A stretch of DNA of 64,000 nucleotides from Takakia lepidozioides (taxonomy: Eukaryota > Plantae > Bryophyta). Where the stretch lies: positions 67,580,001 to 67,644,000 of the forward strand of contig CM060732.1 of NCBI GenBank assembly GCA_030704615.1, written 5' to 3'. Under the pieces are notes generated by a model, which was not told the origin of the DNA, made no database searches, and was given only the letters and a program-made list of their open reading frames with translations. Both the position numbers and the translations under genes were made by a program. Of this stretch, positions 11,901 to 64,000 are shown piece after piece (position 1 is the first letter of the stretch; each line of letters opens with the position of its first letter).

Positions 11901-11984
11901 AGGTAGCATGTGCGCAGGCTCACGCCTCAGTAAGCGTGCTCACTCACGTGAGCACAAGAGGATATTCAAAAGTTCCAAGAATAT

Positions 11985-12650: not shown

Positions 12651-12659
12651 TTAAACAAA

Positions 12660-16050: not shown

Positions 16051-16189
16051 TCCAGCTCGTCCACCATAAAAAAAAAAATCGGGAATTTGAATTTAGTGGG
16101 TCAATGGATATGGCTAGGTCAAATTTCTTTTTCATATTCATGTTGAGCCCGTTCACATGAAAAATATTGGTTTGACAGGATGGAAGGGC

Positions 16190-16970
16190 ACTTGATCGGG
16201 GTCCAAGGGGTCCACAGGTTCTTGCAGTGCATCTACTTGTTGCAAGAGGAAACGCTGAAGGCGTACGACTATTGTTGGAGAGCAAAGAATTTGATCCATT
16301 CAAGGAAGATGAAGATGGTCACACTGCTCTCCATTTTGCAACAGATGTCTTTTGGATGAATATAGATTTGCGTTGCATCTATGATTTCTCAAGCAAAAAA
16401 CACATAAAACGGGATATTTATCTCATGAAAAAAGAACTGGCGGTGATTATAGTGGGAAGAAATGATGCATGAACTTCTTGTTGCAAGCATGTCTCGACAT
16501 TTCAAAACCCAACAAAAATAACTTAACTCCGGATACTGGAGGCTCAGCATTGTGGGAAGACCGCGCATGGTGGTTTGAGAAGGTGACTACTGTAGCTATG
16601 GATATTAAGAGTAATCTCAGATCTGCTGCAAATGCAATTTCAATAACAACAGCATTAGTGGCGACGACGTCTTATGTGGGCTCATTGACACCACCTCTTG
16701 GCTATGCTATCTAGGGTGATACCGTATCACTGGAATTCCAAAATCTCGTAGTGAAAATCTTCATATTTTGTGATAGTATGTCATTTTATCTCGCCATGGC
16801 ATCCATGGTGTTCTCTATGATTCCGTCATTTTCACTCCAGTACGAGGAGCTGAACCGGACTCGAATATATGTAGGTTGCACAACATGTGTACTTTCAGCT
16901 TCTATCATTTGTATTTAAGTCGCTTTTGCAGCATCCCATTGCGGTATTGCCAACAACATGGAATCATAGA
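16190..16970 (+). pseudogene. Ankyrin-repeat plus PGG-domain membrane protein fragment (ACD6/ITN1-like), disrupted
   Basis: Ankyrin motif HLLVARGNAEGVRLLL...DEDGHTALHFA, then PGG-like ANAISITTALVATTSYVGSLTPPLGY and hydrophobic segments, with frameshifts and stops. Confidence 0.7.
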
Positions 16971-17486
16971 GGTTTAAGATACTTACGAAAGAAACACATA
17001 TAGAACGGGCTTTGCCAACCTTTTAAAAATCTTTCAAAGACATGAAACTTGAAAGAGCATCTTAGAGCATCTGGGGCTCCTTTACCGTTGCCGTTGCATT
17101 TAAGGACCCCCGGTGGAGATGCTCTAATACTCTGGAGATGGGGAAGAAACACGTATAGGGGCTACCTAGCCTAGATAGTGGTGCTTTGCCTGAACACAAC
17201 CAAGTGATGTTGGGTACGGTCCTTCAAGAATGTTATTGCACTGATATCCATTCGTCCCTCGTCGGTCTTAGCCAACGTTTTGAAAATCTTTGGACATGAA
17301 ACAAATATTTATATCTAAATCTCTCTACTCGGATGTAAATTACAAGCGATGCACTCTAATATAAATGCATTTGTTTCAGAGAAATTTGTTTTCGTTTTTT
17401 TTTTTTTTTTTTTTTTTCAAACCCTTATGGCTTTTCAATCAACTTTGACTATTTGATTTTAAGAAGTCAAGATTCAGTTGTTTATA

Positions 17487-18490
17487 CCTTCACCTAAGTT
17501 TTCATGGTATAATCTTATAATTGTTTTGCGAGCATGAAATTTTTGTGCAACCTCTCCAAAGTATGAAACAAATTCACGAATCTGTTGGAATCTGTCAAAC
17601 CAATTGAAACCCAATTCAACGTGATCTAAATGCCACATGACTCCGTTGACCAACTTTTGTTGATTTTTCAGAGTTTTTGGGTCAAATTTGATATACATCT
17701 TTTGTAATGTGGAACTATGTAGTGTTTTTTTTTTCTTTGGCGAGAAAATTGCCAGATTTTGACATGGAAAATGGGTCAGTTACCTGTACAAATGAACTAT
17801 AATGGGTAGAATCTGAAAATTTCGCCAAAAAACACCAATAGTTGAATAATATCAGGAGCCTAATTTTGCACCATGGACCAGTTAAAACGTGCCACCTGAT
17901 ATATAGCCACTTTTCTAACCCTATAACCTCGTTATTGTCGCCACATGGGCATTAGATAGAAATCACATGTTGCCCCGCCTACGATTTTGAAAAGATGAAA
18001 AGAAAAACACTAATGTTGTGTCCCAGAAGGGTAGTAGACTGAATTGTATTGTATTTTTGCAATTTGCGACATTTTGGGGTTTGGGGAACTTTGGTGTGTT
18101 GCATCTAGAGCAATAATCTGGGTCACGGAAAACGCTTGGTCAAAGATATAGGTTGAACTTCATTGAAACTGGCATGTGATCCCTAGAAGAAATATATATA
18201 ATATCTTGAAATCAACGGTGAAATGTTCTAATGTATGCTAACTTAGTACAGACTAGCGTGGCCTACACCGTTGAACATATTCCAGAAAAAACCCAATTTG
18301 CTATTTTTCATCAATTTCCAGTGACAAAGAAAACTGAAAAAAACTTGAAAAAACTTCCACATTGCTGGTCTAAAAATTATGAAACCACATCAATGCACCC
18401 CTACTCATGGAGTGCTTTCCAGCAATATCAAGACCACGATGGAGACTTTGTGGTTTGGGAGATATCAACGATGCTACGAAACAAACTAAC
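17487..18490 (-). repeat. Right arm of the long inverted repeat
   Basis: Reverse complement of ~12660-13896, with an internal deletion of ~280 bp relative to the left arm. Confidence 0.85.
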
Positions 18491-18571
18491 TGGTTTAATA
18501 TCAATAAAAAATCTGTTCAAACCAATTCAACGTAATCTGAATGTCACACGACTCTGTTGACCAACTTCTCT

Positions 18572-18766
18572 AAACAACCAAGATGTAGCCTAGTGGTAAG
18601 GGCATATATCCTCTTATGAGTGATTGTGGGTTCAAACCACCATGTTGGTTGTTACAAAGGTGTCCACCTTCCTACCGGAAGGCAGTAGCCCTTCTGGGTC
18701 AAGTGACACCATAAGTTATGCTTGCTTCGGCAACGCGTCCATCTTTTTTTTTTTCTTTTTTTTCCG
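18572..18766 (+). mobile_element. tRNA-derived SINE inserted in the dispersed repeat
   Basis: A-box TAGCCTAGTGG (~18586), B-box GGTTCAAACC (~18629) and a poly-T tail. The flanks gaccaacttctct and gactgacttctct match at 11/13. The host repeat is uninterrupted at ~13680-13715 (rc) and ~17645-17690. Confidence 0.72.
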
Positions 18767-19559
18767 GACTGACTTCTCTTTTTTTTCAAAGTTTTTGGGT
18801 CAAATTTGATACACCTCTTTTGTAATGCGCAGTTGTGTCAGCATTTTTTTAATGAAATTTGGAACACAACACGCGTGGCTACAAAGTTTTGCAAAAAATA
18901 GCCATACATTCTGTTCATCCACTGAAATTATGATAGAATCATCCACCTCTGTACTTTAATCCATTTATATAATCATATTTGACAAATTCATCCATAATTT
19001 ATTTTTTATTTGGAGAAGTTTGACGACTTCATCCATGAAAAAACAGGGAATTTGTGACAGAATATTCCCTTTATTTCTTGAGATCGAAATCTGGCAAAAA
19101 TTTGCAAAAAAAAAAAAAAAATGCTAGGCTGTGCAGTGCTTTTTTTTTTAGCAAACAATTGCCAGATTTCGACCTGGAAAATGGGTCACTTACTTGTACA
19201 AAGGAATTATAGTGGGTAAAATCTGACAATTACGCCAAAAAGCACCAGTAGTTGAATATCAGGAGCCTAATTTTGCCGACATGGGCCAGTTAAAATGTGC
19301 CACCTGGTATATAGCCACTTTTCTAATCCTGTAACATTGTTATTCTCGCCATATGGGCACTAGATAGAAATCACATGTGGCCCCGCCTGCGATTTTGAAA
19401 AAATGAAAAAAAAAACACTAATGTCTCGAAAGGGTGGTAGATAGAATTGTACTATATTTTGCAATTTGCCACCTTTGGGGGTTTGGGAAAAACTTTGGTA
19501 CGATGTTGCAACAAAAAATGCTTGGTCAAAGATATAGGTTGTACTTCACTGAAATTAAA

Positions 19560-19769
19560 AACCGATCAAAAATTTAATATATTTTTTAAAATTCAAAAAA
19601 TCGAACCAGAACCGGAAACTGGAACCGGCGGTTCCTTCCCAAAAAATACCCGGAACCGGAACCGGAATCTGCTCATGAATTTTGGAACCGGAACTGGAAC
19701 CGGAACCGCCTCTTTAATATACCAAGAAACCGGAGGTTCCTTCAATATGGCAAGAACCGCACAACACTG
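19560..19769 (-). mobile_element. End of a hAT-like MITE with (GGAACC)n subterminal repeats
   Basis: The terminus reads CAGTGTTGTG on the minus strand and is followed by many GGAACC/GGTTCC units. The same terminal 10-mer occurs at 53315. Confidence 0.5.
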
Positions 19770-20129
19770 GAATTTACGACAAAATATTCGATTATTTTTT
19801 TTAGGTCGAAAAAGTGCAAAATTTCGCCAGAAATTAAAACACACTCGCTCTCGCTATTCCACATAGCGGTCTCTCTAGCATGGCTCGTCCCTCACGCATG
19901 TAGGGTAACATGTTTATTGTGTATAGGTGTTACTTGTTTCTTAAGTGATGTTGTGAGGGCCTATGTGAGCAGTTAAAAAAAGTTTCGCAAAGTTTTTAGT
20001 TTCTCAATTTTAGTTTCACTGGAGAATATCCTTAATATTCGCTTTGCTCACACGCCACCCAACCTCTTGAACAGCATGCCACTGTCCAGAAGATAACCAT
20101 AACATGCGGCCTAAACTTGATCGGCATGA

Positions 20130-20765
20130 TTTCATAAGATACTTAGGCAAAACTAAAATGTAAGCACGCCATACCTAATGTGAAACTTTTCAAAATGTTT
20201 ACTCACATGAACACAATCCACACAAGTAGGGCTTAGAGAATTTTCTATCAAGGCCAGTTCCTCAAACATTAATGGTTGTATTTCTTATCATGGATGTAAT
20301 ATGCGAAAGTAGTTGTAGTTATTTTGTTTCGTCCACAAAATTGTCATGGACGAGGATGTTATCCAATTTTCTTTAATATAATCTTGGAAAATCTATATTC
20401 TTGATTTATTTCACTGGCGAACCCCATGGTCTGCTTTAGTACTACATTAAATTGTTGAACTCATTATTTGATTATTTGTGTGTTTTGGATGGTGTTGGTA
20501 TTTGTGACTTTGTTTTCCCTACTATGTTATTCGATACCAATTTGTAAATATATGGAACTTGAACTTGTAAATATACAATGAGAGAGCCTCTTCGCGTGTA
20601 GGAATCCTATGGCTGTCCTTCATGTTCTATTTCCGTGGAAACATGGGTACCCTATTGGCCATTTTTGTGCTCACGCCTTCATTTTTTTGCACTCATGTGA
20701 ACTGTGCTCACGTTCTATCAACCCCCAAAAAAACAAAACAAACTACCAAATTTAATAATGTATTT
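20130..20765 (+). repeat. ~650-bp direct repeat, copy 2
   Basis: Matches ~11985-12650 in the same orientation. Confidence 0.85.
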
Positions 20766-21507
20766 TATTTCTTTTTTCTTTTTTAAACTAAGGGCATGAA
20801 GCCATTTAGTTTATTAGAGTGAAAAAATAAACCCACTGGCACCATGAGGAGGAATAACATATTCAGAGAAGGGTTTCCCCACGTTATGCGAACCGGATAC
20901 CCCAGAAAACCTCAGAAAAACAAAAATCGTCAGTTTAAGCCCTAGAAAAGTTATTTTTGCACCGAGAAAATAAATCTGAAGGTACTCATATGCACCGTGC
21001 CTGTTAACATGTAATTCCTATGACCGCGGTTTGAAAACATTTAACCCCTATGACCGCGGGTTGTGCTCACGCCGTGCTCACGTGAGCATGCTTATGTTGT
21101 GCTCACATGATACCAACCCCCACTGTTCAACAGTCGAGTAATGCGGAACCGTTTGGGCCTTGGGGATTCCAGCTTGGAAGGCTCCCGCAAATCTCACCAG
21201 GCCCGGAATTCTATCCAGGAATCCATGGCTAGAATACAAAGGAAACCACACCAATGGATTATAGATTGAATTGTTGTTCAGTCACCAGGTGTCTTGCTTG
21301 CTTCACCTTTTGCTTTGAGAACAGGAGCTCCACCTTCCAACAACACAAGAGGTCGACGGATTAGGGTAGGAGACAAGGGCAAGACATACTTACAAAAAGA
21401 TAAGTTTTAGACAGTCTTTAACGATTCCATTAAGAAAAAGCTTTATTAGTTAGCTTAATCTCCAATCGGACTGCATACATTCGACGGTTGAGATCCTGGT
21501 AACAGTC

Positions 21508-36778: not shown

Positions 36779-36950
36779 GTATTGTTTTGTTCAATGGTTG
36801 CAAATCAGAATTGTACATTTTGAGTTTGGTGACCCTGTTAAGTGTGGCAAGAATCTTGTTGTCATGACAAACCTTTGTATGAGTATCGAGGAGCCTCGAC
36901 ATATTATATGTGAATTCGAGCATAAACAGCTGTAATTCTTAGTCATGCAG

Positions 36951-39315
36951 GAGGGCAGAGTTGAATCAGGCACAGCCCGCCGTTGGACATCAGACTGGGT
37001 GCAGAGGTAGCACCTGCACCCTCACCACTGCCTTTGAAAGAGGAGCACGAGGGGGAGTAGACAAGAACTTGTCCGACACTTGTTGGGATGTGAGGACACT
37101 ATGTAGGGCAGGAAAACTGAAAGAGGCGCCACACATTTTGAATCAAGGAGGAATTCGGGCCGACTCCAACACATATGCTTGTATCTTGCAGGTGTGCATC
37201 AATGCAAAAGACCTAGCAGTGGGAAAGCAGGTGCACGTGCATTTAGTCCAAAGCAGATTCAAGCCAAACATCTTTCTACTCAACACCCTTCTCAATATGT
37301 ATGCTAAGTGTGGGAGCATGCTAGATGCACGTCAACTGTTTGACGAAATACCTGCACGAGATGTATCAACGTGGAATATATTGATATCAGGATATGCCAA
37401 GCATGGGTGTGGTAGGGAGGCTTTCAAGATCTATGAGCAAATGCAGTGGGAAGGTGTGACACCCAACGGGGTCACATTCATCTGCATTCTCAATGCATGT
37501 AGCAGCCTAGGAGCTCTGGAAAAGGGCAAAGAGGTCCATGCTGACATCATCAAATCTGGACTTGTGCCTGATATCATTCTGGAAACTGCCCTTGCTGACA
37601 TGTATGCCAAATGCAGGAGCCTACTAGATGCACGTCAAGTATTTGACAATATGGCCAAACGAAATGTGGTCTCATGGAATGCCATGATTGCAGGATATGC
37701 TCGGCATGGGTGTGGTGGGGAGGCGTTTGAGCTCTATGAGAAAATGCAACGGGACAGGGTCACTCCCAATAAGATTACATTCATTTGTGTTCTCAATGCA
37801 TGTGCCATCCTAGGGGACCTCGATAAGGGAAAGGGTGTCCATGCTGACATTCTCTCAGCTGGAATTGCACCAAATATTGTGTTGGAGACTGCCCTTGCTA
37901 ACATGTATGCCAAATGCGGAAGCATGAAGGATGCACATCAAGTGTTCAACTGTATGGCCAAACGAAACGTAGTCTCATGGAACACCATGATTTCTGGATA
38001 TGCTCAGCATGGCTGTGGTAGAGAGGCTTTTGCAATCTTTGAGGAGATGCAACAGGAAAGGGTGGAGCCCAACACAGTCACCTTCACTTCTGTTTTCAAT
38101 GCGTGTGCCATCTTGGGAGCCCTGGAATTGGGCAAGGAGGTCCATGCTGACACCATCAGAGCTGGAATTGTGCCAGATATCATTCTGGAGACTGCACTCG
38201 CTGACATGTATGCCAGATGTGGGAGCATGAAGGATGCATGTCAAGTTTTTGACAGTATGGCTCAACGAAATGTGGTCTCATTTAATGCCATGATGGCTGG
38301 ATATACTCAGCAGGGGTGTGGTAGGGAGGCTTTCAAGATATATGAGCAAATGCAACGGGAAGGGGTGACGCCCAACAGCGTTACATTCGTTTGTGCTCTC
38401 AATGCTTGTGCCAGCCTAAGAGACCTGGAAAAGGGCAAAGAGATCCATGCTGACATCATGAAATCGGGGTTTGTGTCAAATCTTAGTGTGGGGATTACAG
38501 TTGTTAACATGTATGCCAAATGCGGTAGCATAAAGGATGCACGTCAGGTATTTGACAACATGGCTGAACGAGATGTGGTCTCATGGACTGCAATGATGGC
38601 AGGATATGCACAGCAAGGTTGTGATAGGGAGGCTTTTGAGATCTATGAGCAAATGCAGCGGGAAGGGGTGACGCCCAATGGGATCACATTCATTTGTGTT
38701 CTCAATGTTTGTGCCAGCCTAGGAGCCCTGCAGAAGGGCAAAGAAGTCCATGCTGACATCATGAAAGTAGGGATTGCTTCAAATATTAACTTGGAGAATA
38801 GCATTGTCGACATGTATGCCAAATGCGGGAGCTTAGAGGATGCACGCCAAATTTTCATGGAGATGTCTAAACGAGATATTGTCTCATGGAATGCCATGAT
38901 CGCTGGATGTGCCCAGCATGGTTGTGGGAGGGAGGCACTACAATTACTTGAACAAATGGAGCAGGAAGGCTTGAAGCCAACTGCAATCACCTTCATCTCT
39001 CTTCTCTCTGCATGTAGCCATGTGGGCCTAGTGGATGAAGGCCGTCACTACTTCGAATCCATGAGTCGTGATCATGGCCTCACCCATGACTTGGAGCATC
39101 TTGGCTGCATGGTGGACGTTCTCGGCCGTGCAGGGCGATTGGAAGAAGCAGAAGACTTCATTAATGGAATGCCAATCAAACCTCATGCTGGGCTATGGAG
39201 GGCCTTGCTTGGTGCCTGCAAAACTCATGGCAACTTGGAGGTAGCAGAACGTGTGGCGAAGAGCATTCTCAAGAGTGATCCACAGGAATCCACAGATTAT
39301 GTGGCTCGATTATGA
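36951..39315 (+). CDS. PLS-class pentatricopeptide repeat protein with truncated E domain and no DYW (organellar RNA-editing factor type)
   Basis: 784-aa ORF with six L-S-P triplets (MYAKCGS..DA...F..M..RNVVSWN.MI.GYA.HG) at 303-nt period, then L2/S2 (LSACSHVGLVDEG; CMVDVLGRAGRL) and E1 (WRALLGACKTHGN). It stops within the E region. Confidence 0.93.
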
Positions 39316-42181: not shown

Positions 42182-42958
42182 CTACACTGAAATATTAAAG
42201 GACTCCCGCAGGCGCTCCAGCTCCAAATACGCGGTACTGTATGGCAGAAACATCGCTGAGTGCTCGTCCGCAAGCTCCCGAACACCACCCGCGAGCTTAG
42301 GAATCGCTGCAATCTCGTCATAGGTCAACTCCCTGACAAATCGAGCAGGGTTTCCAGCCCACAGCTCGCCAGATGGAACGCGCCGGCCAGGGGCCAATGT
42401 CGACCCCGACCCGAGCACGGCATGGGTCTCCACTAAGGAACCCTCCATCAACACGCACCGCTGGCCCACCACACTTTCATCATCTATTGTACATGATCTA
42501 AGCGTGCTGAAGGCCCCCACTGTCACAAATTTGCCGATCGAGGTTTCCGCAGGGAGCCCAGTTGGAGAAGTGGCTGCAGCATGGAGGACACACTTGTCCC
42601 CGATATTGGACGAGAAACCAACAACAATGCGGTTCAGATCCCCTCGCAGCACACACCCATACCACACACAAGCCTTGTCCTGCACGTCCACAGCGCCAGC
42701 AAGCACGGCGTTGGGGGCAACCCAAGCATCCACAGCCACAGTGGGTACTAAGGTCCCCAAAGGCAGCTTGCTTCTTTGCCCCTTATAGTCCCACTCAACG
42801 TGATACTTTGTCGACGCCTGCCGAGACTGTTGGGTTGATGGAGGGGACGGTGATGAGGAGGAAGATAACAGCGACAGTGAGGAAGAGGAATGTGCTGAGG
42901 TACTCCGAATAAGGGTGCGAAGCAGCTTCAATCTCCCACGCAGTGCCAGTGCCGCCAT
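42182..42958 (-). CDS. GAMMACAL: Gamma carbonic anhydrase-like protein, mitochondrial complex I subunit; intronless
   Basis: Arg/Ser-rich presequence, then WDYKGQR, VAVDAWVAPNAVLAG, VLRGDLNRI, SPTGLPAET, ELWAGNPARFVR and FLPYSTAYLE, which are characteristic of the CAL subclass. Confidence 0.93.
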   Translation of the reverse strand: MAALALRGRLKLLRTLIRSTSAHSSSSLSLLSSSSSPSPPSTQQSRQASTKYHVEWDYKGQRSKLPLGTLVPTVAVDAWVAPNAVLAGAVDVQDKACVWYGCVLRGDLNRIVVGFSSNIGDKCVLHAAATSPTGLPAETSIGKFVTVGAFSTLRSCTIDDESVVGQRCVLMEGSLVETHAVLGSGSTLAPGRRVPSGELWAGNPARFVRELTYDEIAAIPKLAGGVRELADEHSAMFLPYSTAYLELERLRESFNISV

Positions 42959-43943
42959 AGCTGAGCTCCCGAAGCTCTCTCGTCTTCGTCTCTCTCGTCT
43001 TCACAGGGAAAGGGCCCCACTTCCTTATTCCAACAGCATTTTCTCTCTCTAATTTTCCATTCCCTTGTTTGATTTCTGGAGACTCATTGGTGGGTTATTA
43101 GTGAGTTCTTAGGGGCTTAGTAATCACAGTGGGATTTGTGATATAAGAAATCACTTGATCCGCGGAGATATATTGTTGGGCTCTGAAGTGGGGAGCATTT
43201 ACATGTCACCCCAGAACTGTGTTCCTTTTGGGGTTAACATGATACCTAGGTTAACATGATACCCTACCATACATACTTCCATGGCAGCGCTCAGAATCAC
43301 AGACAATTGTGAATAACTTGGGATGGATTCCTCTTGCTTTGAAACACAGTAAGTAGTTAGCAAGATGAATTTGCTCAGTTGGTTCAAACTCCGAGTTCAG
43401 GTGGAGTTTGCAGTGCTTGCCTGTGGACTTACTACAATAGCTACTTGACACTCTTTCAAGACAGCCAAGTTTGGTCTAATTGCATATCAATATTCATGAC
43501 AGAAGACAAGAAGCACAACTGGTGAACATGAGCATTCAAGACTCCACTTCAGATCTCAAATGGGGATGAAAGATGGTACAGCCATGGTGCCAGTATAGTG
43601 AAGATATACCGTGCACTGCATTGATTCTCAGGCCGTCTAGAATTAATTTTCTTGAAAACCATTTTACATTTGTGTGCTTTGTCACATGAATTCTGCAACA
43701 TCCCAAGATTAACACAGATGCTACAAGGCTTTAAAGAATATCATTACAACTTCATGACTGTATAATACTGCGCTCTCCATCACTAATAATACAGAGGACT
43801 TCCCAAGTGCATAAGAATAACAGGCGGGGTAGCATTTCAGGTAGGTCAGATGCCACCCCATGTCATTCTTGGCAGATTGGAAGGGATCTCCAACAAACGT
43901 AACTTTTCACATAGCTGATAATTTGAAGGAAAACCTAGCCAAA

Positions 43944-46900
43944 TCAATGTTTCGTCAGGTCTTCAGGAACAATCGGATAGGATGCGCATGTTGCCACACC
44001 TGAATCAAGTTCATCCACCAAGTTTACACCACATTAGCGACGGGCTTCCTCTTTCTAAACATTTATTTCAGAATCAGATGGGAAGGAAGAGCTAGAAAAA
44101 GAATCCCATCTTTGACAGGAGTCGGCATGCCAAGGAAACTTGTTTGTGTTATACGACACTATCAAAATAGCAGAGATCAGCAGCTTGGACTCCCCACTGA
44201 CTACACCTGCTCCAACAGGGACAAACCTGAGGGTTGAACATGACAACATGGGATAGATGCTCATATAACAGTGGGATTTGTTACATGATTAGATTTGTCA
44301 CTGAAAATCAAATTTCCAGGTTAAACTTTTCTTTGAAACAGTTGTGTTGGCGCATCCTCGTGTTGATCAACAACATGCACACTGAAAAAAAAGGACTTGA
44401 TCATGCATGGAGCCCTTAAACATGAACTGTTGCTGTGGGGTTCTGCTAAGAGATAATTGGAACAATGAACCATCAAGGGAGAGGTATTTTGGCTTGAAAT
44501 GGAGACAGGAAGAAGAGTACATACCACACATATTTTTGCCCATTTCGATATGGAAGTAGCCATCCAATCCCCACAATTCACCCCATGAGTTTTTAATAGT
44601 CCAGTAAGGGATTCCCTTGGCATCCACACCATAGCCCACTGCCAACACTGCGTGGTTCACGGTCTGCACAAAGCCCAAACTGCACCTGTTACACATCCTC
44701 ACTAATTTGCTATCAGGCTGCAGAGGGTACTAGAGCTGTATGCCTCTATTGTCTACTCTAAGGCATGAATTGAACTTGACAGGAGTCTGCAAAGCTGTGC
44801 AAGGAACTGAATAGTGATCACAATCTCAAGATTGACCCCAAAAGCATAGGAGCAATCCCTCACCTGAGGACCATCGTGACAGAGAGGGCTAGAGTACACG
44901 CCATCGCTGTAGAGTTGGAAGCTGTCAAGGACCTCAAATGCCACACTAACTGGCCTCACCAGCCCCACTGCATGCTTTAACTCGTGCTCAGCTCCCTGTT
45001 CCACCCAGACGTTAGAGTACAGTATCTCTCAATTTAACAGTCACTCTCTTCAAATGTTATTACCAAAAAAGCATGGGGTGAATGTGTACATAGAATCAAA
45101 CAAGCAAGTAAGCTCTATACTGTCCATAGGGGTCCCCCAGAGACCCCATGGTACAAAGTAGAATGACAAGAACCCACTTCAGAAAATATTGAATGACATC
45201 TGAAGGCGTAGTGCCTCGTGCAGGTATGAGGCTAGACACTTTGGGGTCCTCAAAGCTGAACGCTTCAGACAACGATACAGAAACAAACAAGGACAGAGAA
45301 TCACCTCTGTGATGTTGACAACATCATAAACTTGGGCACCAACAGTGTTGTCAAGATACTTGCATGTACCATCTTGTGCAGAGTATGGGTACGACTCCTC
45401 AGTGTCAAGACCCCCATTATACCTTATATACTCAAATGCTTGTGAGGGAAGCCCTCCTCCACAACCAAAGTTGTTGAATTCGCCAGCACAATCGACCAAT
45501 TGCTGCTCGGAAAGAAGAACCATTTTTCCAGTAGCCTGTGCATGTGCTGATTCCAAAGAACCTGTTGTACTGCACAGGAAACAGGATAATCAGCTTCTCC
45601 CCCCACATGAACATTTAAAGGTGCCAAATACTTCAAGGGACTATCTTCTTCGATCCCCTCTGTATCAACAATGTAAAGGTGTGTGCTTCCATACATCCAA
45701 ACCCTCCTCACAAACCAAAGCAGATCACATATTGCCCAATTGATAGTTACCTAAACAATAAGCCTTAAACGATCTACCTTTGAAGTTCATATGTGCCGAT
45801 TTACACAGATGCTCTATTATGAAAGAAAATGTCTCTTGAAGGACAACAACCAATTCAAACTACTGCTTTTACCTTCCAGCCAAAAGTGCCACTTGTCTAC
45901 TACAGTCAAGTCATTAAAAAATCTCAGAAGGGATATGTTCAATTCCACAAGACCAATGGGAGACCAGTGGCAACCATGAGTTTGACCAGATGATATGAAA
46001 TCATATTATGAGAAGAATTGCGAGTGCCATATCAGGTTTCAAGTTTGCCTCCCAAGGAAACACTTAAATGCAAAAAGTTGGAAGCAAGGATTAGACCTGA
46101 ATGTCCAGCAGGAGCCACAGCTAGCTTGATTCTTGACTGGACTAACAATTCCATCCTTCCGCCAGTCTTTCTGCAGCCACAGATCCATAGTCTCAACCAC
46201 AGATCTTCTACAAGGCAACAAAATTAGCCAGGTGCAATTTGTCCTGGATGCTTCTGCAGCCTTGTCAGCTCACCCAGGGAGTTCCATTCTATAGAGGCCG
46301 AGGGACCATGCAGCCCCTACATCCAAGGCAAACAGTGCAACCAGAAAACTCACTACTAACCTGCCAAAAACTCCAACAATAAGGCTTGCTCCTTCAAACA
46401 ATGGTAATATCGAAAGAAAGACTGGTCAATCAACAATGTCTTGTAGATAGCAATTATGTGTCTAAAGAGAACCAGTGGGGAACACACCTCCTCTGGCAGC
46501 TTGGCATCAGTGAGGTGGTGGTTGCCCTTGGTAGCTGAGCAGTTCTGTGAAGATTTCAACAGATGAGTGCTCCTGAACTCCTCAAATGCCACATCCGCAA
46601 ACTCTGTACATTTAGAAGCCACCAGTCAGCTCAACCACATCAAAGTTATCAACATCTTTGCATCTGCAAGTGCATGCTGTCTATGGGATAGTTGAGTCTT
46701 ACAGCCAATGAAGAAAACTAGTGAGTCTGCAAAAAAAATTGATCGGGACCGACGCCCGAAATGCAGTGAAATGTTAAACAACCTTTCTAGGGTGTGCAGT
46801 GGTCGACATACTCTTCAATGCTACCAAGCACTGCAAGCTTTATTATAGTTGCATAAGATACAATCCTTGCTCCAATCTATCCAAACTACTGATTCTCTAG

Positions 46901-55012: not shown

Positions 55013-56206
55013 TCAGAATGTTTGTACCTTCACAGTAGCAGTGTTGTATGGTTGTTGTCCGAAAACAGGCTGAGACTCCAAAAACTTGGGAATACTGGCA
55101 GCTTTCGATGCCTTCCACAAAAAAGGCCACAACACCTCTGTTAGATACTCATCAGTTCGTGAATCTGGTTGCACTTTCCATGGCTCTGGAAAAATCCCAC
55201 TGAAGGGAGGATTGTTTGCCGCCTTTCTTGGTGTGTCGTCAACAAGAACAGTGTCCTCATAAGTCCATTCTGGCCAGTCTGCCCACACTCTAGACAAGTT
55301 CTTGAAATATAATGGTTTTGAATCAGACCCCTTACGGCATGGGAGGACTGGATCCTCGTCACAGTGAAGAGCATCCCACTGGAAAACCAGCTTAGTGTGG
55401 GCTGCAAAAATATAGTCCACCATTGGGAAGAAGTTGCGAGCTTGGCAACAAGACCACACCGCCACCTCAAAGTGTTCAAAACACTTTTGCAAAAAGTCAT
55501 AACAATGTGGTCTCAAAACTACCATCTTCTTGCCACACATCTTCCCCACAAAACCTTTGGGAAGGGATGCAGGCCCATTAGCAGAATGAAAAGATTCACA
55601 TAACAGACCATTTAAGTCCAGAATTAGTAAATGCTTCCTCGCTGGTCCAGGAAGTAAACTGTCATTTGGCTTCAACATGTGAGCAGGAGAAATTAAAGCA
55701 ACCTGCTTGTTTGTTTTGTCCCCGTCTGCATCTTCCTCCCCATTTAAACTCCCACATACCTGCATACCAGAATCCAGTGTGCCCGGCAGCTCTGTCACCA
55801 TTGCCCCCTGGACTGCTACTGCCTTTGTACGTGGCAAGGGCTGAATTTCCACGTGTACCTCACAGTTGGCCTTCCCTGTATCCTGCTGCTGCTCGGTCAA
55901 ATTCAAAAGATCATTAGTGACAGGAAGACATAAGGGCTTAGAGTGAGCACTAGTTACCGTCTGAAATTGGGATTCCAAACATTTTGATACTGTCACAGCA
56001 GACGCATCCATCGTAGATGTCACTGGTCCTACGCCTGGTAGATTAATCCCCAATCTGGCCACAATGGCTTTCTGGTACTCAATCATGTTCTGCATCTGTA
56101 ATTTTAAGTCTGCCATGTCACGTCCTTGTGATTCCACCAGTTTGTCCAAGCCATCCATCCTGCCAACTACTGTAGAATATGCGAGACTTCCCTCCTGCCA
56201 ATCCAT
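55013..56206 (-). CDS. FCP1/SCP (NIF, HAD-superfamily) phosphatase-like ORF inside the transposon nest
   Basis: HLLILDLNGLL (motif I variant), LRPHCYDFLQKCFEHFEVAVWS, KPLYFKNLSRVW and TVLVDDTPRKAANNP, with an N-terminal short coiled coil and low-complexity region. Confidence 0.82.
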   Translation of the reverse strand: MDWQEGSLAYSTVVGRMDGLDKLVESQGRDMADLKLQMQNMIEYQKAIVARLGINLPGVGPVTSTMDASAVTVSKCLESQFQTVTSAHSKPLCLPVTNDLLNLTEQQQDTGKANCEVHVEIQPLPRTKAVAVQGAMVTELPGTLDSGMQVCGSLNGEEDADGDKTNKQVALISPAHMLKPNDSLLPGPARKHLLILDLNGLLCESFHSANGPASLPKGFVGKMCGKKMVVLRPHCYDFLQKCFEHFEVAVWSCCQARNFFPMVDYIFAAHTKLVFQWDALHCDEDPVLPCRKGSDSKPLYFKNLSRVWADWPEWTYEDTVLVDDTPRKAANNPPFSGIFPEPWKVQPDSRTDEYLTEVLWPFLWKASKAASIPKFLESQPVFGQQPYNTATVKVQTF

Positions 56207-56608
56207 GAAAACTTGCCCAAGTATCAGCGTAGCTATGGCGTGAGCCCAGCCCCGTGAGCCTGGGAGCTGAGCTCACATTGCAAAGCGTGAGCGGCACAAA
56301 TCTGCTGGAGAAGCAGGCCTATAGGCGAGGATTGCAAGAAGAGGGCCTATTACCGTGGACAAAACAAAGAGGGCCACCATGCACCATGTCTGCAATGCCT
56401 GCACAAAAAGAGGAATATGAAAATATGGCAGAATTGAGCTCAGAATGATTGACAAACTTTATTTCAATTCACAGATAGACGCTTACAATGAATGGCATGT
56501 GCATTTGCCCTGGTTCCGTGAACGAAATATATGTGTTTGTCCTAAATGCAAAGTCTTCACACGGTAACCTGGAAACCAGCGTGGGAAGCGGGCATGGCTC
56601 GTATGTGT

Positions 56609-58543
56609 TCAAAGAGAATTTGGCGGAGCCCTACGTGAGGTGTCCCGCTGCAGAAGGGTGATGACTTCTCCGTAGCCTAGTGTGGCTTGGTGAATGAATT
56701 GGTCTCTCTTACCGTCGCAACACATAATTACAAGGTATATGTAATATTGATGCTTGCAGGGGACCCACTTCCCTCTCATGCCGAGAGCGCCCTCACGCAT
56801 CGTTACAAAATCCGGACAAGTGCAAGTAGGAAAATTCCCCACGGTAACCTGATATTCTTTGCCATGAAGAACTGAGCCAATAGACGGCACTGTGTAAATC
56901 CGTCCATACCCCAGGGCAGGGACTTCGGTGATACGAGCCACCCGAGCCTGCAAAATTCTAGCCGATTCCATCTTGCATTCGTGATCTGCACCCGAAGCGA
57001 CACGGCGCACTGTTTTTCCATCTCTTTTTGTTGGGTGGGAGTCGGCACCGGGTGGAGGCATTGCCGGAGCATGTGGCACATCTATTCCGACAGTGCACAA
57101 GGGCATCACCCGGGACCATGCAAGACAAAACCCTCCCTCCTCCAGCATGCTTATCTCGGTTGTTGACAGCGACGTCCCAAGTTTCACAGGCCAAATTGCG
57201 GGGGGAGGGGGTTTCATTATCACCGAAGGACGAACTGTTCCCTTGACGCATCATGCCATATCATCTGGGCAGAACCAAAACTTGTGGTCCTTTGACTCCC
57301 CACTATGATAAGGTCGGAACAACCCTGTGAATGTTGGAGCTGGAGTCCCCCTGGAGCCTTTGCATATTTTTTATTTGCATTTCTTGAAAGAGGGGGTCCG
57401 AATTGCCATGCAAGCAACTCTAGATCCTGGTGGGGTGCGTTCTATATGCCACTCACTATCAATGCAATCAAATTCCTGCACCATGGCCACCACCTCCTCC
57501 AATGGGATTCCTGCTGCTGTGCTTACATGTTCTGCACCTGCTCCACTAGAGGAGGACCCACCTGGGAAGGGGCTGGCACACGACTTAGTCTGCACTGGCG
57601 ACACCTTTGGCACAGAGAAATTGACCATGTCTGGGCGATGGGAATCTCCATCTGACCCTGGAAGAGTGTTCAATTTCCTTTTGCATGATCCAAATCTTTC
57701 CTCGCCTTCCAAATGAGGGAGCCTGGATTGCAAAGGGGAGCATTCAGTGCACCTGTTCAGAGCTCTGGCCATCTTCGATGGGTCTCCGGACCTACTCGCA
57801 GCCCTTAGCATCAACAAAGTCGTACCGGGGCCCTTGCCTCCACCCCGTCCCATCAGAAAATTGCGGTACCTGGTTTGTTGTGTAAGTGCCCGCACCATGT
57901 CATCTCCTCCAAGGACATGTCCTATAGGAGGCATAGCACGGAAATGTGAGGAACGAAAGGAAATGGAAGAGGTTCTGCAAGCGACAATCCAAGAACCCCA
58001 AATGAAGAGGCACGATGCAAAATTTGTGATTTTGGGATTCAAGAGGCTTACCGTCGTCATGAAAGCTCCCCACTGTCTGAATCTGAAGTGCCAGAAAACC
58101 AACCAGTCCTCCAACTCCTTCAGGTGGATACCAGTAGCAGCACCAGAGGAGAACCACCAAGCCCGGATTGCATGGTAAGTGCTCTCAGCTTCTCCCATTG
58201 AGGTGGCATTTTTGTACTTGAGACAGAGCCTTCTGTGCTCCAACTGAAGGTCAGGGCGAATGCAGCGCGCGCCGCACTGCATTGAAATTTGCCTGTGCAC
58301 TATCAGCCATGAAGCCCGCAAAATTTGTGTTCTGTACTCCATTGCGCTGCATGACGGCCAGGAGCGAATTCCACATGAGCATCTGGGATTCAGTGTCCTG
58401 CGACTGCATATCACAAATTGCTATTGAGAGCACACGCTGGTACGCTGGATCATACACATGGCACGCCATGGTTGTCCAACCCTTCACCCGTTTGCAGTGA
58501 TCAAACATCAACCAACATTTAGCCAAATCCTGCTGATTGTCTT
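56609..58543 (-). mobile_element. SWIM zinc-finger (MULE-like) transposase, disrupted; 5' part displaced by the LTR retrotransposon
   Basis: WLMFDHCKRVKGWTTMACHVYD...CDMQSQD...FMADSAQANFNAVR (candidate catalytic Asp motifs), WLVFWHFRFRQWG, and SWIM CTCPDF...WVPCKH. There are frameshifts between segments. Confidence 0.75.
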
Positions 58544-59026
58544 TGTCGTGCGCATACATATCGCTACACAACTACACCGCTGTCCAAACCACACCACAAA
58601 CCAACGAACACACTGTTTACACAAAACATGAAAACCAAACCATCACTCTTAGAAATAGTAGTCGAGCCAGGGGCACCCCAAGCTATGGGGACTCCACCCC
58701 ACAACAACCTACACTCCCATCATGAGTACACTCAGATCTAAACGCATGCAGGAGCTCGGTCGCGCAGGCTCAACTCGAGAAAGATGAGCCGCGCGACTGC
58801 CGCTCTTGTGAAGATAAGACGGACCAGGTGTCAAACTAAACTTGACATCTGATTTAACACTTGACCTAAATCCAAGTGTTAAATACAAATAACTAGTTTT
58901 ATTCTAGCTGTTTTCACACTGTGCTTATTTAACTTGACAGGTGTCGTGCGCATACATATCGCTACACAACTACATCGCTGTCCAAACCACACCACACATA
59001 TATGCACAATAAAGTAGTCTGCCACA
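58544..59026 (-). repeat. 3' LTR (483 bp) of the Ty3/gypsy element
   Basis: On the minus strand it starts TGTGGC directly after the polypurine tract GCTAGGGGGGCGAT (59040-59027) and ends ...GCACGACA. Transposase codons resume immediately afterwards. Confidence 0.75.
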
Positions 59027-59286
59027 ATCGCCCCCCTAGCTGGTGGATAGGTCCCTCTACCTCCAGATAGCTACAAGATGAAATAGCCACAACCGTACTA
59101 AGTCCTCCATCACTGTCCCTATTGTACTCAAACTCTATAGACCAAGAGGCCGGGTACAAGAGTAGCCCCATCGTTAGTCGCCGTCTTGCAATCTGTGAAC
59201 TTGAGCCAGGATCTCGTGTGTTCAAGGTCTCCTAGTAGCTGGGCCTTGCGTTTCTTGTTAGCCTTCCATGGTTGTATCCACTCCCA

Positions 59287-62200
59287 CTATCCAATGCAAT
59301 GTGGACATAACCAATCCCCATCTGGAACCATCTCAAGAGGTGGAGTCAAGCATCCCATATGCCAACCTCTAGAGCGTCGATCACACACCAACATGGTGGC
59401 TGCCCCTTTAGCAGACCCACACAACATGCACCTCAAACCTGCAGATACCACTGCCAGGTTTGGGTCAATCCTGCCATCGACATTTGGAAGGTGACATGGC
59501 GCACAATTACGCACATGGTCCTTCCAAGTTATGTCATCCCGACCCTCCAAGACCAAGACGCCTGAGGGCAAGACCTCTCGAACCCTCAAAATAACACGTC
59601 ATGCAGTCACATCCAGGGTTGTAGGAGCAGTCTGCTGCAGATAGACATAGTCACCAGGGTTGAATCTCCGAACCCCAGGACGATAGCCCCCACCACGTAT
59701 GGTAGCATACCTCAACGTATCACGGTGTTGTGCAATGGGCAAGGTTCTCGAAAGCCATGGGCATGACTCTCTTGAACAACTCTGCACGCTGCTCACATGC
59801 ACGTGCCCACACGTCCGGATCGTCAAGGTTAAGAACTGTAGCAGCTTCTCTGCGAATGGATGTAGGCAAATCCGGCTCTCGGCCAAAGAGAAGAAAGTAT
59901 GGTGAGAAGGAGGCAAGTGATGCTTGCTTGCTGAACCTGTAGCCCATGGCTAACCAGGGTAACTGAAGGTCCCAATCTCCTAGGTGTCCCTTCTGCAAGC
60001 CATACTTGCGCAAACCCCTCTTTACTGTCTGAACAACTCTCTCTGCCAAGCCATCGGCCTCAGGATGATCCCGAGAAGTGGTGCGGTGGTCTATCAAGGC
60101 CTTGTCACACAAAGCCTGAAACTCCCCCAAGAACTCTCTCCCTTGGTCCGTGAGTACCTCAGCTGGAGCACCGAATCGGCTAAGCACACAATCCAGGAAT
60201 GCATACGCAGCTCCCTCACTAGCCTTATCAGGCAATGGAACCAATTCAATCCACTTGGAGAAGTGCTCCACCATCACCAACACGTACTTGTTGTGGCGCA
60301 TGGTCAGTGGCAACGGCCCTGCGAAGTCAAGACTCCACCTGTAGCCCAATCCCATGATCGGAAGAGGGTGCAATTGTGGAGTAGGGGCGTTGAATGAAGC
60401 ACGCACCCTGTCACACACCATGCACCTAGCCACAAATTGTTGCACCTCTGTGTGCATACCACGCCACCAATACTGCCCCTGCAGTAGACTATGAGTGCGT
60501 CGCACCCCAAAATGCCCCAACTCCTCATGGGCATGGCGCACTAACCGTGCCCGCTGTGTTGGGTGAGGCACAATCCTCACTCGACCATCCTCCCACACTC
60601 GGAGCAGGTGTGTCCCCTCCCACTTGAACCTCTTGGCTCGTTGTAGGATCCGATCCCTCTCCTTGGCAGTCACAGTGGCTGTCGTGTCTCCAGTGCGGAG
60701 GTAGTCCAACACAACTGAATCCTCATGTATATCTTTGGCGCCACCTTGCTCATTGCTGGCCTCAGGGTCCTCAGACACTTGATCTACAGTCATCCCTGTT
60801 GCAGGTCCAACCTGGCCTTCCGCTGCCAAGATACACAGAAATGCAGATGCATGCCATCCGGGCACCATCTCCTCGTCCGTCTCACCATGCCACCGAGCTC
60901 CAGTGTCATCCTGTTGGCTCGTGCATGGATTGCGACTCAACCCATCTGCATTGCGATTGACCAAACCCGGTCGATGCACCACCTGAAAGTCATACTCTTG
61001 AAGGATGAGTGCCCACCGTGCAAGCTTCCCCGTAAGCTTGTCTGACTCCATCAACCACTTGAGTGGTTGGTGATCCGTGACAAGGGTGAAGAGATTGCCG
61101 TATAGATAGCACCTGAAGTGTGCCACGGCCCACACTGCAGCTAAGCATTCTCCCTCATATGAGCTATACTTAGACTCTGCAGCATTGTTCGAGCGGCTAG
61201 CATAAGCCACTACGAACTCTCTTCCCTCATCATCCACATGTGTGAGCACCGCTCCAAGCCCCAGCATGCTCCAATCTGTATGCAGCTGAAAAGGACGCCC
61301 CCTGATAGGTCGTCTCAAGATGGGCGCCGAGGTCAACCTCGCCTTGAGCTCTTGAAAAGCTTGTTCTTGCTCATCTTCCCACTGCCACTCCTGGTCCACC
61401 TTGGTCAGCTTGGTTAGAGCCTTTGCAATGGCACTAAATCCCTTAACAAACCGTCTGTAATAGTTTGCTAACCCCATGAAAGCTCGAACTCGGCTCACAT
61501 CCGTGGGGCGTGGAACCTGTGCAATGGACTCTACCTTAGTCTGCTGTACCCCCAATCCTCCAGGATATATCATGTGACCCAGATACTCAATCTGGTTGTG
61601 GAAAAACTTGCACTTTCCCGGATGTAACTTCAATCCGTGCCCTCAAGCGCTCAAATACCCCTGAAGGTGTCTCTCATGCTCCTCCACCGTAGCACTAAAG
61701 ATGATGATGTCATCTATGTAGCACCGAGCAAACTCCACCCCTGCTAGAATCCTGTCCATGACTCTTTGAAACTCAGCGGGAGCGTTTTTAAGCCCAAATG
61801 GTAAGAACCGCCACTGGTATAGGCAATCCTTCCCGTGCTCATTGATCCCCCAGAATGCCGTCTTTTGCTTATCCGCCTCCTTGATCGGCAACTGGTGATA
61901 TCCGGATCGTAAATCCAACGTGCTAAAGACCTTGGAATGCCCAATGGCATCAAAGATCTCCTCTGGTGTCGGCATGGCATACCTATCGGACTTGGTCTGA
62001 CGATTTACAGGCCGGTAATCACCGCACATACGTCTCTCCGTCCAATTGCCATAGACATCCTTCTTAGCTGGCATCACTGTGGCTGAAGCATACTCTCCAC
62101 CAGAGAGCTCCACCAAACCTGCCTCCCAGAGATCTTGAGTCCTCATCTGAATCAAAGACCTCTCCATGTCACTGTATCTATAGGGTCTCCGAAAGATTGG

Positions 62201-62419
62201 CGTGTCAGTGGCCAACTCAATACGGATCTCTTGACCCTTCAGTGCTCCCAAGTCCTTCAAACTGAAGGCAAAGCAATTCCTGTAAGCCCTCAGGAACCGC
62301 CGTATACGTCGTCTCTCTCCTCCGGTGACAATGGGTCCAATGTCAGGCTCCCAATTGTCCTCCGTAACTGCAACCTTAAGTCCAGTGGGCTTAGAGGTAG
62401 AGGACGCGTCCCGTGGTTG
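59287..62419 (-). pseudogene. Pol region RT-RNaseH-integrase-PHD finger with three disruptions
   Basis: ORFs 61643-62260 and 59720-61633 are in the same frame (TGA at 61643). There is a 1-nt frameshift near 59740, an in-frame TGA at 59599, and a PHD at ~59290-59435. Confidence 0.9.
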
Positions 62420-63991
62420 CTATGCTGCAACCTCTTGAGCAGTACTCCCTTCCTGCTCAGTCAATGACAAGGCCTCATCCTGCCCCATCATCTCATCATT
62501 GAGAACCTCCTCATCCCGAGAAGAATCCCCAACCTCATCCATCACAGCTGCCTTCGCTGCCAACTCCCTCTGAACCTCGAGCACCTCCCACGTGTGCCAT
62601 GGATGTCTACACCCCGTGGTCCTCACCGGCTCGCCCCCACTCGCTGCCTGTACCGTCTCGGTAGGCAGAGAGACCGTCAAGGGAAGTGCACTCCGCACTC
62701 TACGTTGCTCAGCCATAGCCAAGCTGACAATCCAGGTCAAGCAATTGAGATCCATTGCTTGCCCCAACACCTGACGACGTGATGCCTCAGAAAGAGAAGG
62801 CACCGCCGTGGTCCCAGTGGAAAACCCCATAGCCCGCTCTCGCTCGTCGGCATTAGGCTCCACTAACTGCTGCAACTGAGCATCCCACAGGAGGCCAGGT
62901 CCACCATCCCGAAAAGCATGGGATCCTGGGAAGCTGAGCAGTGTAGGTAATGCTGCTCGTGGTTGACCCACCCTGTTGACCACTGCCAAAGGCGAACGGT
63001 CATCGTGTCTCACACGTTGAGACTGCCTTCCTGTGTCCAAAATGCCATCCACGGTGAGGTGTGCTGGCCGCTGCACCCCATCAAATGCACGCTTGAGCAG
63101 TGCGGGTGGCATCAAGTTAGTCCACCATAGTCGTGGACGATGAGCCCGTGACCCCACTGCAGCTGCATCCAGCAATACTGCTGACCCAAGCCACGACCGG
63201 ACTTGATGCACACTGGCCATCACCCTGGCCCGAGAATCACCCATCAGTGGTACATTCTCCAAGATGTATGCTGGAGATACAGCTTGATGAAGCTGCAAGC
63301 AGCGCAAAATCCGCACCATCTCCCAAAACAGACCCGTCCTCGAGTCTCGCAATCCATTGCCATGCCCGGCTGATGAATGCCCTTGGCAGGGCCAACCTGC
63401 CACTATCAGATCAATGGAGCCAACCTGCTCCAAATCTTGCGCCCCCAACAAGGAAATGTCTGCTGGCAAGGCTTGTTGGTATCCACGAACTGCAGACACA
63501 GGCAACAAGTCAGGGTACTGCTGTACCAACTGAGCCACATGGCGCAGTGAGACGCGTCGTGCAGTCTCATCCCTCTCCACATACAGGTAACGCCTTACCC
63601 GCACACCTGCCTGTAGCACAGCAGCCAATCCGGTGCTGATCCCGCCAAACAAGTCCAGAAGGCAAATGCCTTCATCCGGCCGCTGCCACACAAGAGGTGT
63701 GGTGTCCAATGGCGACAACTGAGGTGGCCCTGGTGCAATCACCGCACTCTCCTCCTCTCCTGACGGTACAAAAGCTTCTACCCAAGCTTGTTGCACCCGT
63801 CCATCAGCAGCTTGCTGCAAATCCTTGCTCGTACCCCACAACGGAGTGTGAGCAACCATGGCAGGCAACTCCGCCGTACCATGCATGTCATCCTGCTCTG
63901 CTGGAGGTGGCACATCCTCTGCATGGGCATTGCCTTCCAGCAACTCTCCAGGCCAACTAACTGCAGCTGTGAAGGCGGCTAGTGTTGGCAT
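62420..63991 (-). CDS. Retrotransposon-encoded C5 cytosine DNA methyltransferase domain (~62730-63670), DNMT3-like motifs; ORF open to the window edge
   Basis: Motifs in canonical order: I LLDLFGGISTG, II YVERD, III ADI, IV IVAGWPCQGHSSAG, V RTGLFWEMVRIL, VI YILENV, VII LDAAAV, VIII AHRPRLWWTN, IX ERERAMGF, X RRQVLGQAM. Confidence 0.92.
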   Translation of the reverse strand: MPTLAAFTAAVSWPGELLEGNAHAEDVPPPAEQDDMHGTAELPAMVAHTPLWGTSKDLQQAADGRVQQAWVEAFVPSGEEESAVIAPGPPQLSPLDTTPLVWQRPDEGICLLDLFGGISTGLAAVLQAGVRVRRYLYVERDETARRVSLRHVAQLVQQYPDLLPVSAVRGYQQALPADISLLGAQDLEQVGSIDLIVAGWPCQGHSSAGHGNGLRDSRTGLFWEMVRILRCLQLHQAVSPAYILENVPLMGDSRARVMASVHQVRSWLGSAVLLDAAAVGSRAHRPRLWWTNLMPPALLKRAFDGVQRPAHLTVDGILDTGRQSQRVRHDDRSPLAVVNRVGQPRAALPTLLSFPGSHAFRDGGPGLLWDAQLQQLVEPNADERERAMGFSTGTTAVPSLSEASRRQVLGQAMDLNCLTWIVSLAMAEQRRVRSALPLTVSLPTETVQAASGGEPVRTTGCRHPWHTWEVLEVQRELAAKAAVMDEVGDSSRDEEVLNDEMMGQDEALSLTEQEGSTAQEVAA

Positions 63992-64000
63992 CTTGCCCCG

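Follow-up and report, generated by a model that had tools for sequence, protein, structure and literature searches.

The 64,000-nucleotide stretch of Takakia lepidozioides DNA analysed here (hereafter the window; assembly GCA_030704615.1, contig CM060732.1, positions 67,580,001 to 67,644,000) carries on its minus strand a Ty3/gypsy retrotransposon with a DNMT3-like C5 cytosine methyltransferase (MTase) and, at the integrase end of its polymerase polyprotein (pol), a PHD finger (Table 1). Pfam profiles recovered reverse transcriptase (RT), RNase H (RH) and integrase (INT) in the order characteristic of Ty3/gypsy elements. The MTase is unrearranged, intronless and DNMT3-like, with PDB matches to DNMT3A (E-value (E) 7e-11), DNMT3B (1.5e-7), HhaI (3e-4) and DRM2 (5e-4), and its catalytic motifs are kept in the genomic loci of relatives. 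A protease precedes the MTase in the related proteins P0081 and P0090, together with a zinc knuckle in P0081.

Table 1 Features of the retrotransposon and of the adjoining transposase region, in window coordinates.
Feature	Position	Strand	Evidence or remark
Protease-MTase linker, frame open at the window end	63701..64000	-	Gag and protease upstream in relatives
DNMT3-like C5 cytosine MTase, stop-free; LFGGIS, PCQ, ENV and RAHR present	62681..63700	-	Pfam DNA_methylase 3.5e-13
Conserved in-frame stop in CAR-YYA context (TAG CAA CCA), likely readthrough site	62414..62422	-	Locus comparison
RT, YIDD at 61720	61643..62413	-	Pfam RVT_1 1e-21
RH	60992..61381	-	Pfam RT_RNaseH 2e-35, RT_RNaseH_2 9e-33
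INT HHCC zinc finger, DDE core and long C-terminal helix; frameshift ~59737	59651..60562	-	Integrase_H2C2 2e-16, rve 2e-14
SH3-like five-strand barrel of the INT C-terminus and conserved CAPCH linker, interrupted by stop 59599-59601	59431..59650	-	Mapped from P0001, bounds approximate
PHD finger, C4HC3, column 4 = Arg in the window copy	59296..59430	-	Pfam PF00628 and PDB matches
Ligand codons of the PHD finger	C1 59428, C2 59419, C3 59383, column 4 Arg 59374-59376, H 59359, C 59350, C 59305, C 59296	-	
Stop (TAG) closing pol	59287..59289	-	Near relatives terminate a few residues past the last Cys
Polypurine-tract-like primer site	59028..59040	-	Sequence; same motif in L011
3' terminal repeat block B1-A2-B2, split-direct-repeat end	58544..59026	-	Repeat analysis and layout of relatives
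Broken high-copy MULE-like transposase region, SWIM-like finger (weak)	56609..58529	-	Atlas 0.92; Pfam SWIM E 0.06, below cut-off

A first-pass annotation of this DNA had read a C4HC3 PHD finger with Arg in place of the fourth Cys. Both points were confirmed: the window finger passes the Pfam threshold (PF00628, E 2.3e-9; score 37.6 bits, cut-off 24), and a PDB search with it returned 67 sequences at E ≤ 0.001, the 60 among the matches listed being PHD-type finger proteins, led by CHD4, KDM5B PHD1, KDM5A PHD1, PHF12, ATXR5 and BHC80. With Arg as ligand 4, the window copy does not possess the full eight-ligand set. The accompanying claim that the finger ends the pol frame holds for intact relatives (e.g., P0037, P0043 and P0090), but not for this copy, in which the finger sits in a piece of 103 amino acids (aa) between two stops (59287-59598) and is cut off from the integrase core by the stop at 59599-59601 and a frameshift near 59737. 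Further stops lie upstream at 61643 and 62420.

The structural model of P0001, an intact relative (mean predicted local distance difference test score (pLDDT) of 79), runs from a long helix through an SH3-like barrel of five strands and a linker to the PHD; the barrel strands span 100-150, with pLDDT of 76-92 per 10-residue block except for a loop at ~101-120. The PHD of this model follows the SH3-like barrel of the integrase C-terminus and occupies the slot of the chromovirus chromodomain, as the first-pass annotation had proposed; Pfam detected no chromodomain in the window or in 13 relatives. The PHD part superposes on the H3-bound PHDs of DPF3, ATXR5, BAZ2A and BHC80 with root mean square deviations of 0.6-1.3 Å over 46-50 columns. 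A fold search with P0001 yielded Tudor as well as PHD matches; we considered the former as a candidate second reader and rejected them, since they are explained by the SH3-like barrel. Between barrel and PHD lies a CAPCHLP motif (window ~59493-59505, minus strand) that is nearly invariant clade-wide and possibly represents an extra zinc site.

We compared copies of the element using contigs of public sequencing runs (X1, X4, X5 and X7, the first two from one sample) and metagenome loci, X7, which may be RNA, not being taken as evidence of expression; 11,801 contigs of run X1 were placed on 1.4 kb, and their summed depth was not taken as copy number. Siblings differ from the window copy at base 1 of the codon for Cys4 in 1,021,155 of 1,021,540 units of word depth (99.96%; X1, 99 contigs), with which X4, X5 and X7 concur almost wholly. 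The stop at 59601 differs in siblings in 97% of the depth, and the frameshift base near 59737 is missing in 35% of the X1 depth (with loose ends there), in 62% of that of X5 and in a long X7 contig. Two small indels (rows 61638 and 61657) flank the stop at 61643-61645, one lacking in 67% of the X1 depth and the other in 17%. The breaks thus compared are mostly private to the window copy, which is a decayed, dead but otherwise ordinary member of a high-copy Ty3/gypsy-DNMT3 retrotransposon family.

Conservation extends to relatives. Cys4 is kept in 51 of 59 proteins retrieved with the PHD, 38 of 39 retrieved with the MTase and 32 of 34 genomic loci. All eight ligands are present in 31 of 51 close proteins, in distant proteins in 7 of 8 and 38 of 39 cases, and in 19 of the 34 loci; among proteins retrieved with the integrase, 109 of 120 have the complete motif. 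A search of a viral collection for relatives gave one weak locus (33%, E 5e-4), which we disregarded. Nonsynonymous divergence (pN) in the PHD is 0.22 against a synonymous divergence (pS) of 0.54 when pooled over 32 loci, which are not independent of each other, and 0.07 against 0.66 for the pair L025/L026. Judged from these sequence comparisons, the finger is under purifying selection in the family, and the possibility that it is degenerate in most copies, against which the first-pass annotation had asked for a check, is not what siblings and relatives show. That the finger is a functionless vestige or a chance Cys-rich pattern could be argued from the four breaks of the window copy, from the 15 of 34 genomic relatives that lack, or do not align at, at least one ligand, and from a PHD pN/pS ratio (0.41) higher than that of RT or INT (0.21-0.24). 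However, the Pfam score above the cut-off, the pN far below pS and the complete motifs found from green algae to land plants have already largely refuted it, and we regard it as highly improbable.

What such a finger could read depends on a few positions. We took the position of the aromatic cage Trp to be two residues before the His ligand, with reference to PDB alignments. This Trp is absent from all complete family motifs (76/76 and 109/109), the column being occupied by G, A or P. The accessible portions of PMC3241642 describe a cage with an invariant Trp as a requirement of PHDs that read H3K4me3, and acidic residues ahead of Cys1 as a property of those that read unmethylated H3K4 (K4me0); an alternative K4me0 determinant, an acidic wall, is described in the part available of PMC5415848. 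In the lineage of the window copy, 28 of 31 fingers have no acidic residue before Cys1, none of the 31 has the acidic wall, and the mean charge is +2.9, whereas the fingers of distant relatives carry a mean charge of -5.3, with the wall present in 27 of 38. The A1 pocket (P-x-G-x-W) and the Arg2-binding Asp after Cys3 are nearly invariant (D189, P208 and W212), the Asp being present in 29 of 31 window-lineage fingers. The best sequence and fold matches of the finger are readers of unmodified H3 (KDM5A/B PHD1, CHD4, ATXR5, BHC80, BAZ2A/B and UHRF1), which resemble it in having an A1 pocket, an Asp following Cys3 and no cage Trp; the window lineage differs from them in lacking the acidic cluster before Cys1 and the acidic wall.

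We predict from these residues that the window-lineage finger either binds the tip of H3 with little selectivity for K4 or has lost histone reading. The first-pass annotation had suggested that integration is targeted by H3K4 state; this is doubtful in the window lineage because there is no cage Trp and there are almost no acidic K4-reading residues. Selection by H3K4 state seems more plausible for the distant acidic group. Even H3 tethering without K4 selectivity has to face the loss in the window lineage of the acidic residues of unmodified-H3 readers, which may mean weak or no H3 binding. The finger of the land-plant lineage might then no longer be a histone reader at all, but a zinc-stabilised basic module of the integrase C-terminus contacting DNA, an intasome subunit or a host protein. 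The vanished acidic residues and the change of net charge with respect to distant relatives would fit such a module, as would the single Asp left at the Arg2 site, the persistence of purifying selection and the location of the finger right after the SH3-like barrel. Nevertheless, three features have been retained, namely the A1 pocket, the Asp that follows Cys3 and a hydrophobic strand ahead of Cys3; the nearest PDB sequences and folds are H3-tail readers, and we consider this alternative unlikely.

The pairing of a PHD reader with an MTase writer, also put forward in the first-pass annotation, stood in part. Both domains co-occur in 23 of 29 spanning loci, the six exceptions being internal deletions or loci where the integrase is missing too, and the MTase lies within the same open reading frame (ORF) in 48 of 120 integrase-retrieved proteins, most of the others being too short to tell. 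These counts weigh against a complete separation of the two functions. The position of the MTase relative to the other domains is nonetheless variable: while the PHD stays on the integrase end, the MTase can be found before RT, between RH and INT, or not at all. In 26 of 78 proteins retrieved with the MTase and 29 of 120 retrieved with the integrase, the order is RH-MTase-INT and a single ORF includes the PHD as well; P0231 and P0232 have a complete protease-RT-RH-INT-PHD run with no MTase. In a quick integrase tree, in which the placement of the long-branch rows P0129, P0134, P0137 and P0056 is unsure, elements with the MTase before RT, including the window copy, form a group of 19 rows (SH-aLRT support 93), and those with RH-MTase-INT order a sister group of 36 (support 92). 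Named members of the sister group (P0095-P0134, P0177-P0248) come from Pleodorina, Haematococcus and Volvox, and MTase-bearing gypsy elements are therefore not confined to streptophytes. One RT-RH-MTase-INT-PHD protein, P0124, is annotated in a bacterial metagenome-assembled genome ('Minisyncoccia bacterium'), likely as eukaryotic contamination. Precomputed Pfam annotation also places PF01585, which we take to be the G-patch, in the integrase-PHD proteins P0164, P0171 and P0205.

One way to understand this pairing is that the PHD recognises unmethylated H3K4 and directs or activates the DNMT3-like MTase, as the ADD domain does in DNMT3, and steers insertion into silent chromatin. In addition to the co-occurrence in loci and the single ORFs with RH-MTase-INT-PHD order, the acidic, wall-bearing PHDs of distant relatives, which resemble the K4me0 readers described in the portions seen of PMC3241642 and PMC5415848, and the DNMT3-like nature of the MTase speak for it. 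The comparison with ADD is less favourable. ADD consists of a GATA-like and a PHD-like finger directly before the MTase, whereas the finger of the element is a canonical C4HC3 PHD found downstream of both MTase and integrase in every architecture seen, and Pfam gave no ADD-family match in the window or the relatives scanned. In the window lineage, moreover, ~1,080 codons and a conserved stop separate MTase and PHD, and the K4me0 determinants are missing; P0231 and P0232 dispense with the MTase, and the legend describing Chlamydomonas Gypsy-7a, the part of that source relevant here, lists a PHD and no MTase. Coupling of this kind appears quite improbable to us. Because of the conserved stop, the shifting or absent MTase slot and the lack of H3K4-reading residues, the reader-plus-writer interpretation is weakened to co-occurrence, a coupled unit being unsupported, and PHD and MTase probably do separate jobs.

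The stop between MTase and RT (62420-62422, followed by CAA CCA) could be taken for simple decay of the window copy, an explanation that we rejected since the stop is conserved across lineages. RT by itself retrieved 80 loci, of which 73 extended far enough upstream for the context of the stop to be scored: an in-frame TAR-CAR-YYN just upstream of RT occurs in 61, an out-of-frame one in 2 and none in 10, to be compared with 205 of 16000 random windows. Across 10 junctions representing 4 diverged lineages, TAGCA is the sole run without variation, and an in-frame TAG in a CAR-YYA-type context is found in L001, L002, L007, L011, L017, L025, L026, L041 and L048. At least 20 MTase ORFs terminate ~65-160 aa past the MTase, with RT-RH-INT-PHD called as separate ORFs. 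In 48 of 59 loci the MTase is in frame with RT but ahead of the conserved stop, and the two would form one ORF only via readthrough; in P0090, MTase and pol are stop-free in one frame. Readthrough is favoured in the window because the first in-frame Met lies ~85 codons into RT. UAG followed by CAR YYA is the tobacco mosaic virus (TMV) readthrough signal, and rice gypsy elements, RIRE2 among them, are named as readthrough candidates in the sections available of PMC2754532. The element shares with these the UAG and CAR-YYA in frame upstream of the polymerase; it differs in that its putative leaky stop is placed after Gag-protease-MTase. Our literature search retrieved nothing on a leaky stop in these elements.

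Several observations weigh against readthrough as the general explanation. Just 10 of the 61 contexts match CAR-YYA fully, the other 51 ending in C or T, and most of the latter are then followed by ATG; the context of the dominant lineage is CAA CCC ATG, and reinitiation or a separate transcript is therefore allowed there. The loci belong mostly to one lineage, some being the same site recovered from different samples. Among the sibling differences listed, none falls at 62420-62422, which does not prove the conservation of the stop in this genome. On balance, the segment 62414-62422 is likely a leaky readthrough site between Gag-protease-MTase and RT-RH-INT-PHD.

Taken together, we find it reasonably probable that the finger acts as a chromatin tether of the integrase, contacting the H3 N-terminus with no choice of H3K4 methylation state, and that the MTase is made separately, with Gag, before a conserved and occasionally read-through stop. 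Gag-protease-MTase would be the main product, and we infer that RT-RH-INT-PHD would be made via occasional ribosomal readthrough. The protease would cleave the MTase from the integrase, which would be released with its PHD; the latter would tether the intasome to nucleosomes through the H3 N-terminus, with whatever insertion bias this might bring, and the MTase might act on the element's own DNA (cDNA or new copies). We extend this only tentatively, as a possible but rather doubtful scenario, to a green-lineage-wide gypsy clade with its own DNMT3-like writer and integrase PHD reader, whose land-plant branch would dose both by readthrough (the MTase at Gag level in the particle, pre-methylating new cDNA, and the reader-integrase at a few percent) and would have turned its PHD, once a K4me0 reader, into a K4-blind tether.

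At the 3' end of the element, two copies of a 55-nt repeat, B (58942-58996 and 58544-58598), flank a 343-nt segment starting with TGTCA. We considered an internal duplication of an ordinary long terminal repeat (LTR) and rejected it, since relatives show split repeats, with A1...B1-A2-B2 ends in L011, L035 and L062. Exact 4-bp target duplications occur in five of seven relatives with both ends, L035 having one mismatch and L030 lacking the duplication. L017, L023, L024 and L010 have a single B repeat at the 3' end, A2-B2 being absent, and still keep a perfect 4-bp target duplication; these ends likely derive from B1-B2 recombination or a second integration product.

The first-pass annotation had also stated that this copy landed inside another transposon. 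This is confirmed in part, on the 3' side, the 5' end lying beyond the window: the 3' end, at 58544, is 14 bases from the MULE-like frame (atlas score 0.92, with 72% of the cluster being MULE), and depth and loose ends at 58529 indicate that other copies of the MULE-like region continue past that point. The flanks of relatives are too few and assembly-biased to show targeting: of 34, two fall within other transposons and one is close to a PPR gene. This survey covered 33 of 36 ORFs, after dropping three duplicates of L011, and gave matches to PIF1 (L004), RNase H (L060) and PPR (L021). In L004 (3110-4607) the relative is directly beside a PIF1 helicase frame, and in L060 (13351-13869) it lies inside the RNase H of another element.

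Elsewhere in the window, a 419-aa frame without introns (55013-56272, minus strand) encodes an NIF (FCP1-like) phosphatase domain (E 7e-17); the frame lies directly downstream of the MULE-like region and may be cargo of that transposon. There are also a PLS-type PPR gene (36943-39312, plus strand), whose repeats measure 303 nt (101 aa) and which has an E motif, a papain-family protease exon (45182-45589, minus), a hexapeptide-repeat frame (42185-43000, minus) and an open frame of 543 aa (2642-4270, minus) with no Pfam match at 0.001. Positions 11200-20800 are densely packed with nested direct and inverted repeats (100-200 nt long and 80-97% alike), which resemble a set of small non-autonomous transposon copies.

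PHD-bearing gypsy elements and Gypsy-DNMT3 elements have both been published; the present variant stands out by its conserved, likely leaky stop, by the changing position of the MTase across the clade and by the loss, specific to its lineage, of residues for K4 reading. The reason why retrotransposons retain a DNA methyltransferase is given as open, and a yeast assay of the KnitGypsy DNMT as inconclusive, in the accessible text of PMC5890265, and guidance of integration by PHDs appears as proposed rather than demonstrated in the parts available of PMC6673714 and PMC9940879. If the leaky stop puts the MTase with Gag, there would be many MTase copies per particle, favouring self-methylation of cDNA and not chromatin-guided writing. 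The acidic PHDs of distant relatives and the basic ones of the land-plant lineage constitute a natural pair for probing reader specificity.

Among known systems, KnitGypsy-Dnmt3, as described in the portions seen of de Mendoza et al. 2018 (PMC5890265), combines Ty3/gypsy domains, a DNMT3-like MTase under purifying selection and DIRS-like repeats; the name 'Gypsy-DNMT3', for streptophytes, is used in the excerpt available of bioRxiv 10.64898/2026.05.21.726589. The gypsy domain set, the DNMT3-like MTase and the DIRS-like split repeats are common to KnitGypsy-Dnmt3 and our element. In KnitGypsy-Dnmt3, according to that same partial text, the DNMT is inside the pol ORF and the element is reported from Klebsormidium only, whereas here the MTase ends the Gag-protease ORF ahead of the conserved stop, and Marchantia, Calypogeia and Sphagnum are the sources of the closest proteins with a named species (65-78%). 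A Klebsormidium protein with RT-RH-INT-PHD (P0165) is among the relatives of the element. The main text and three supplement files of PMC5890265 do not mention a PHD, though its Fig. 4c, not visible in them, may show one; with that same reservation, our literature search found no paper on PHD-DNMT3 pairing, and PMC6317226 mentions neither PHD nor methyltransferase. Retrotransposon PHDs are called widespread, and a targeting role is proposed for them, in passages of PMC6673714, PMC8557442, PMC9940879 and bioRxiv 10.1101/2021.11.30.470311. Those of the first three cite REM1 of Chlamydomonas as a PHD-bearing gypsy element (Perez-Alegre 2005), and PMC9940879, as far as its available part goes, describes in Gypsy-7a_cRei a PHD accessory of Gag-Pol proposed to steer insertion, intergenic insertion being 2.6x chance. 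The PHD as a Gag-Pol accessory is thus shared by REM1, Gypsy-7a and our element, which differs from Gypsy-7a, for which that part lists no MTase, in carrying a DNMT3-like one. Chromoviruses have a chromodomain at the integrase C-terminus for which targeting has been shown (Gao et al. 2008, as cited in the text seen of PMC6673714); their arrangement and that of our element both place a chromatin-reader fold after the integrase SH3-like domain, a chromodomain there and a PHD here. Finally, the EpiLTRs of Cymbomonas and Euglena, with chromodomain, DAM and DNMT4-like domains according to the same bioRxiv 10.64898/2026.05.21.726589 excerpt, resemble our element in being LTR elements that join a histone reader with a DNA methyltransferase, our element having a PHD and a DNMT3-like MTase.

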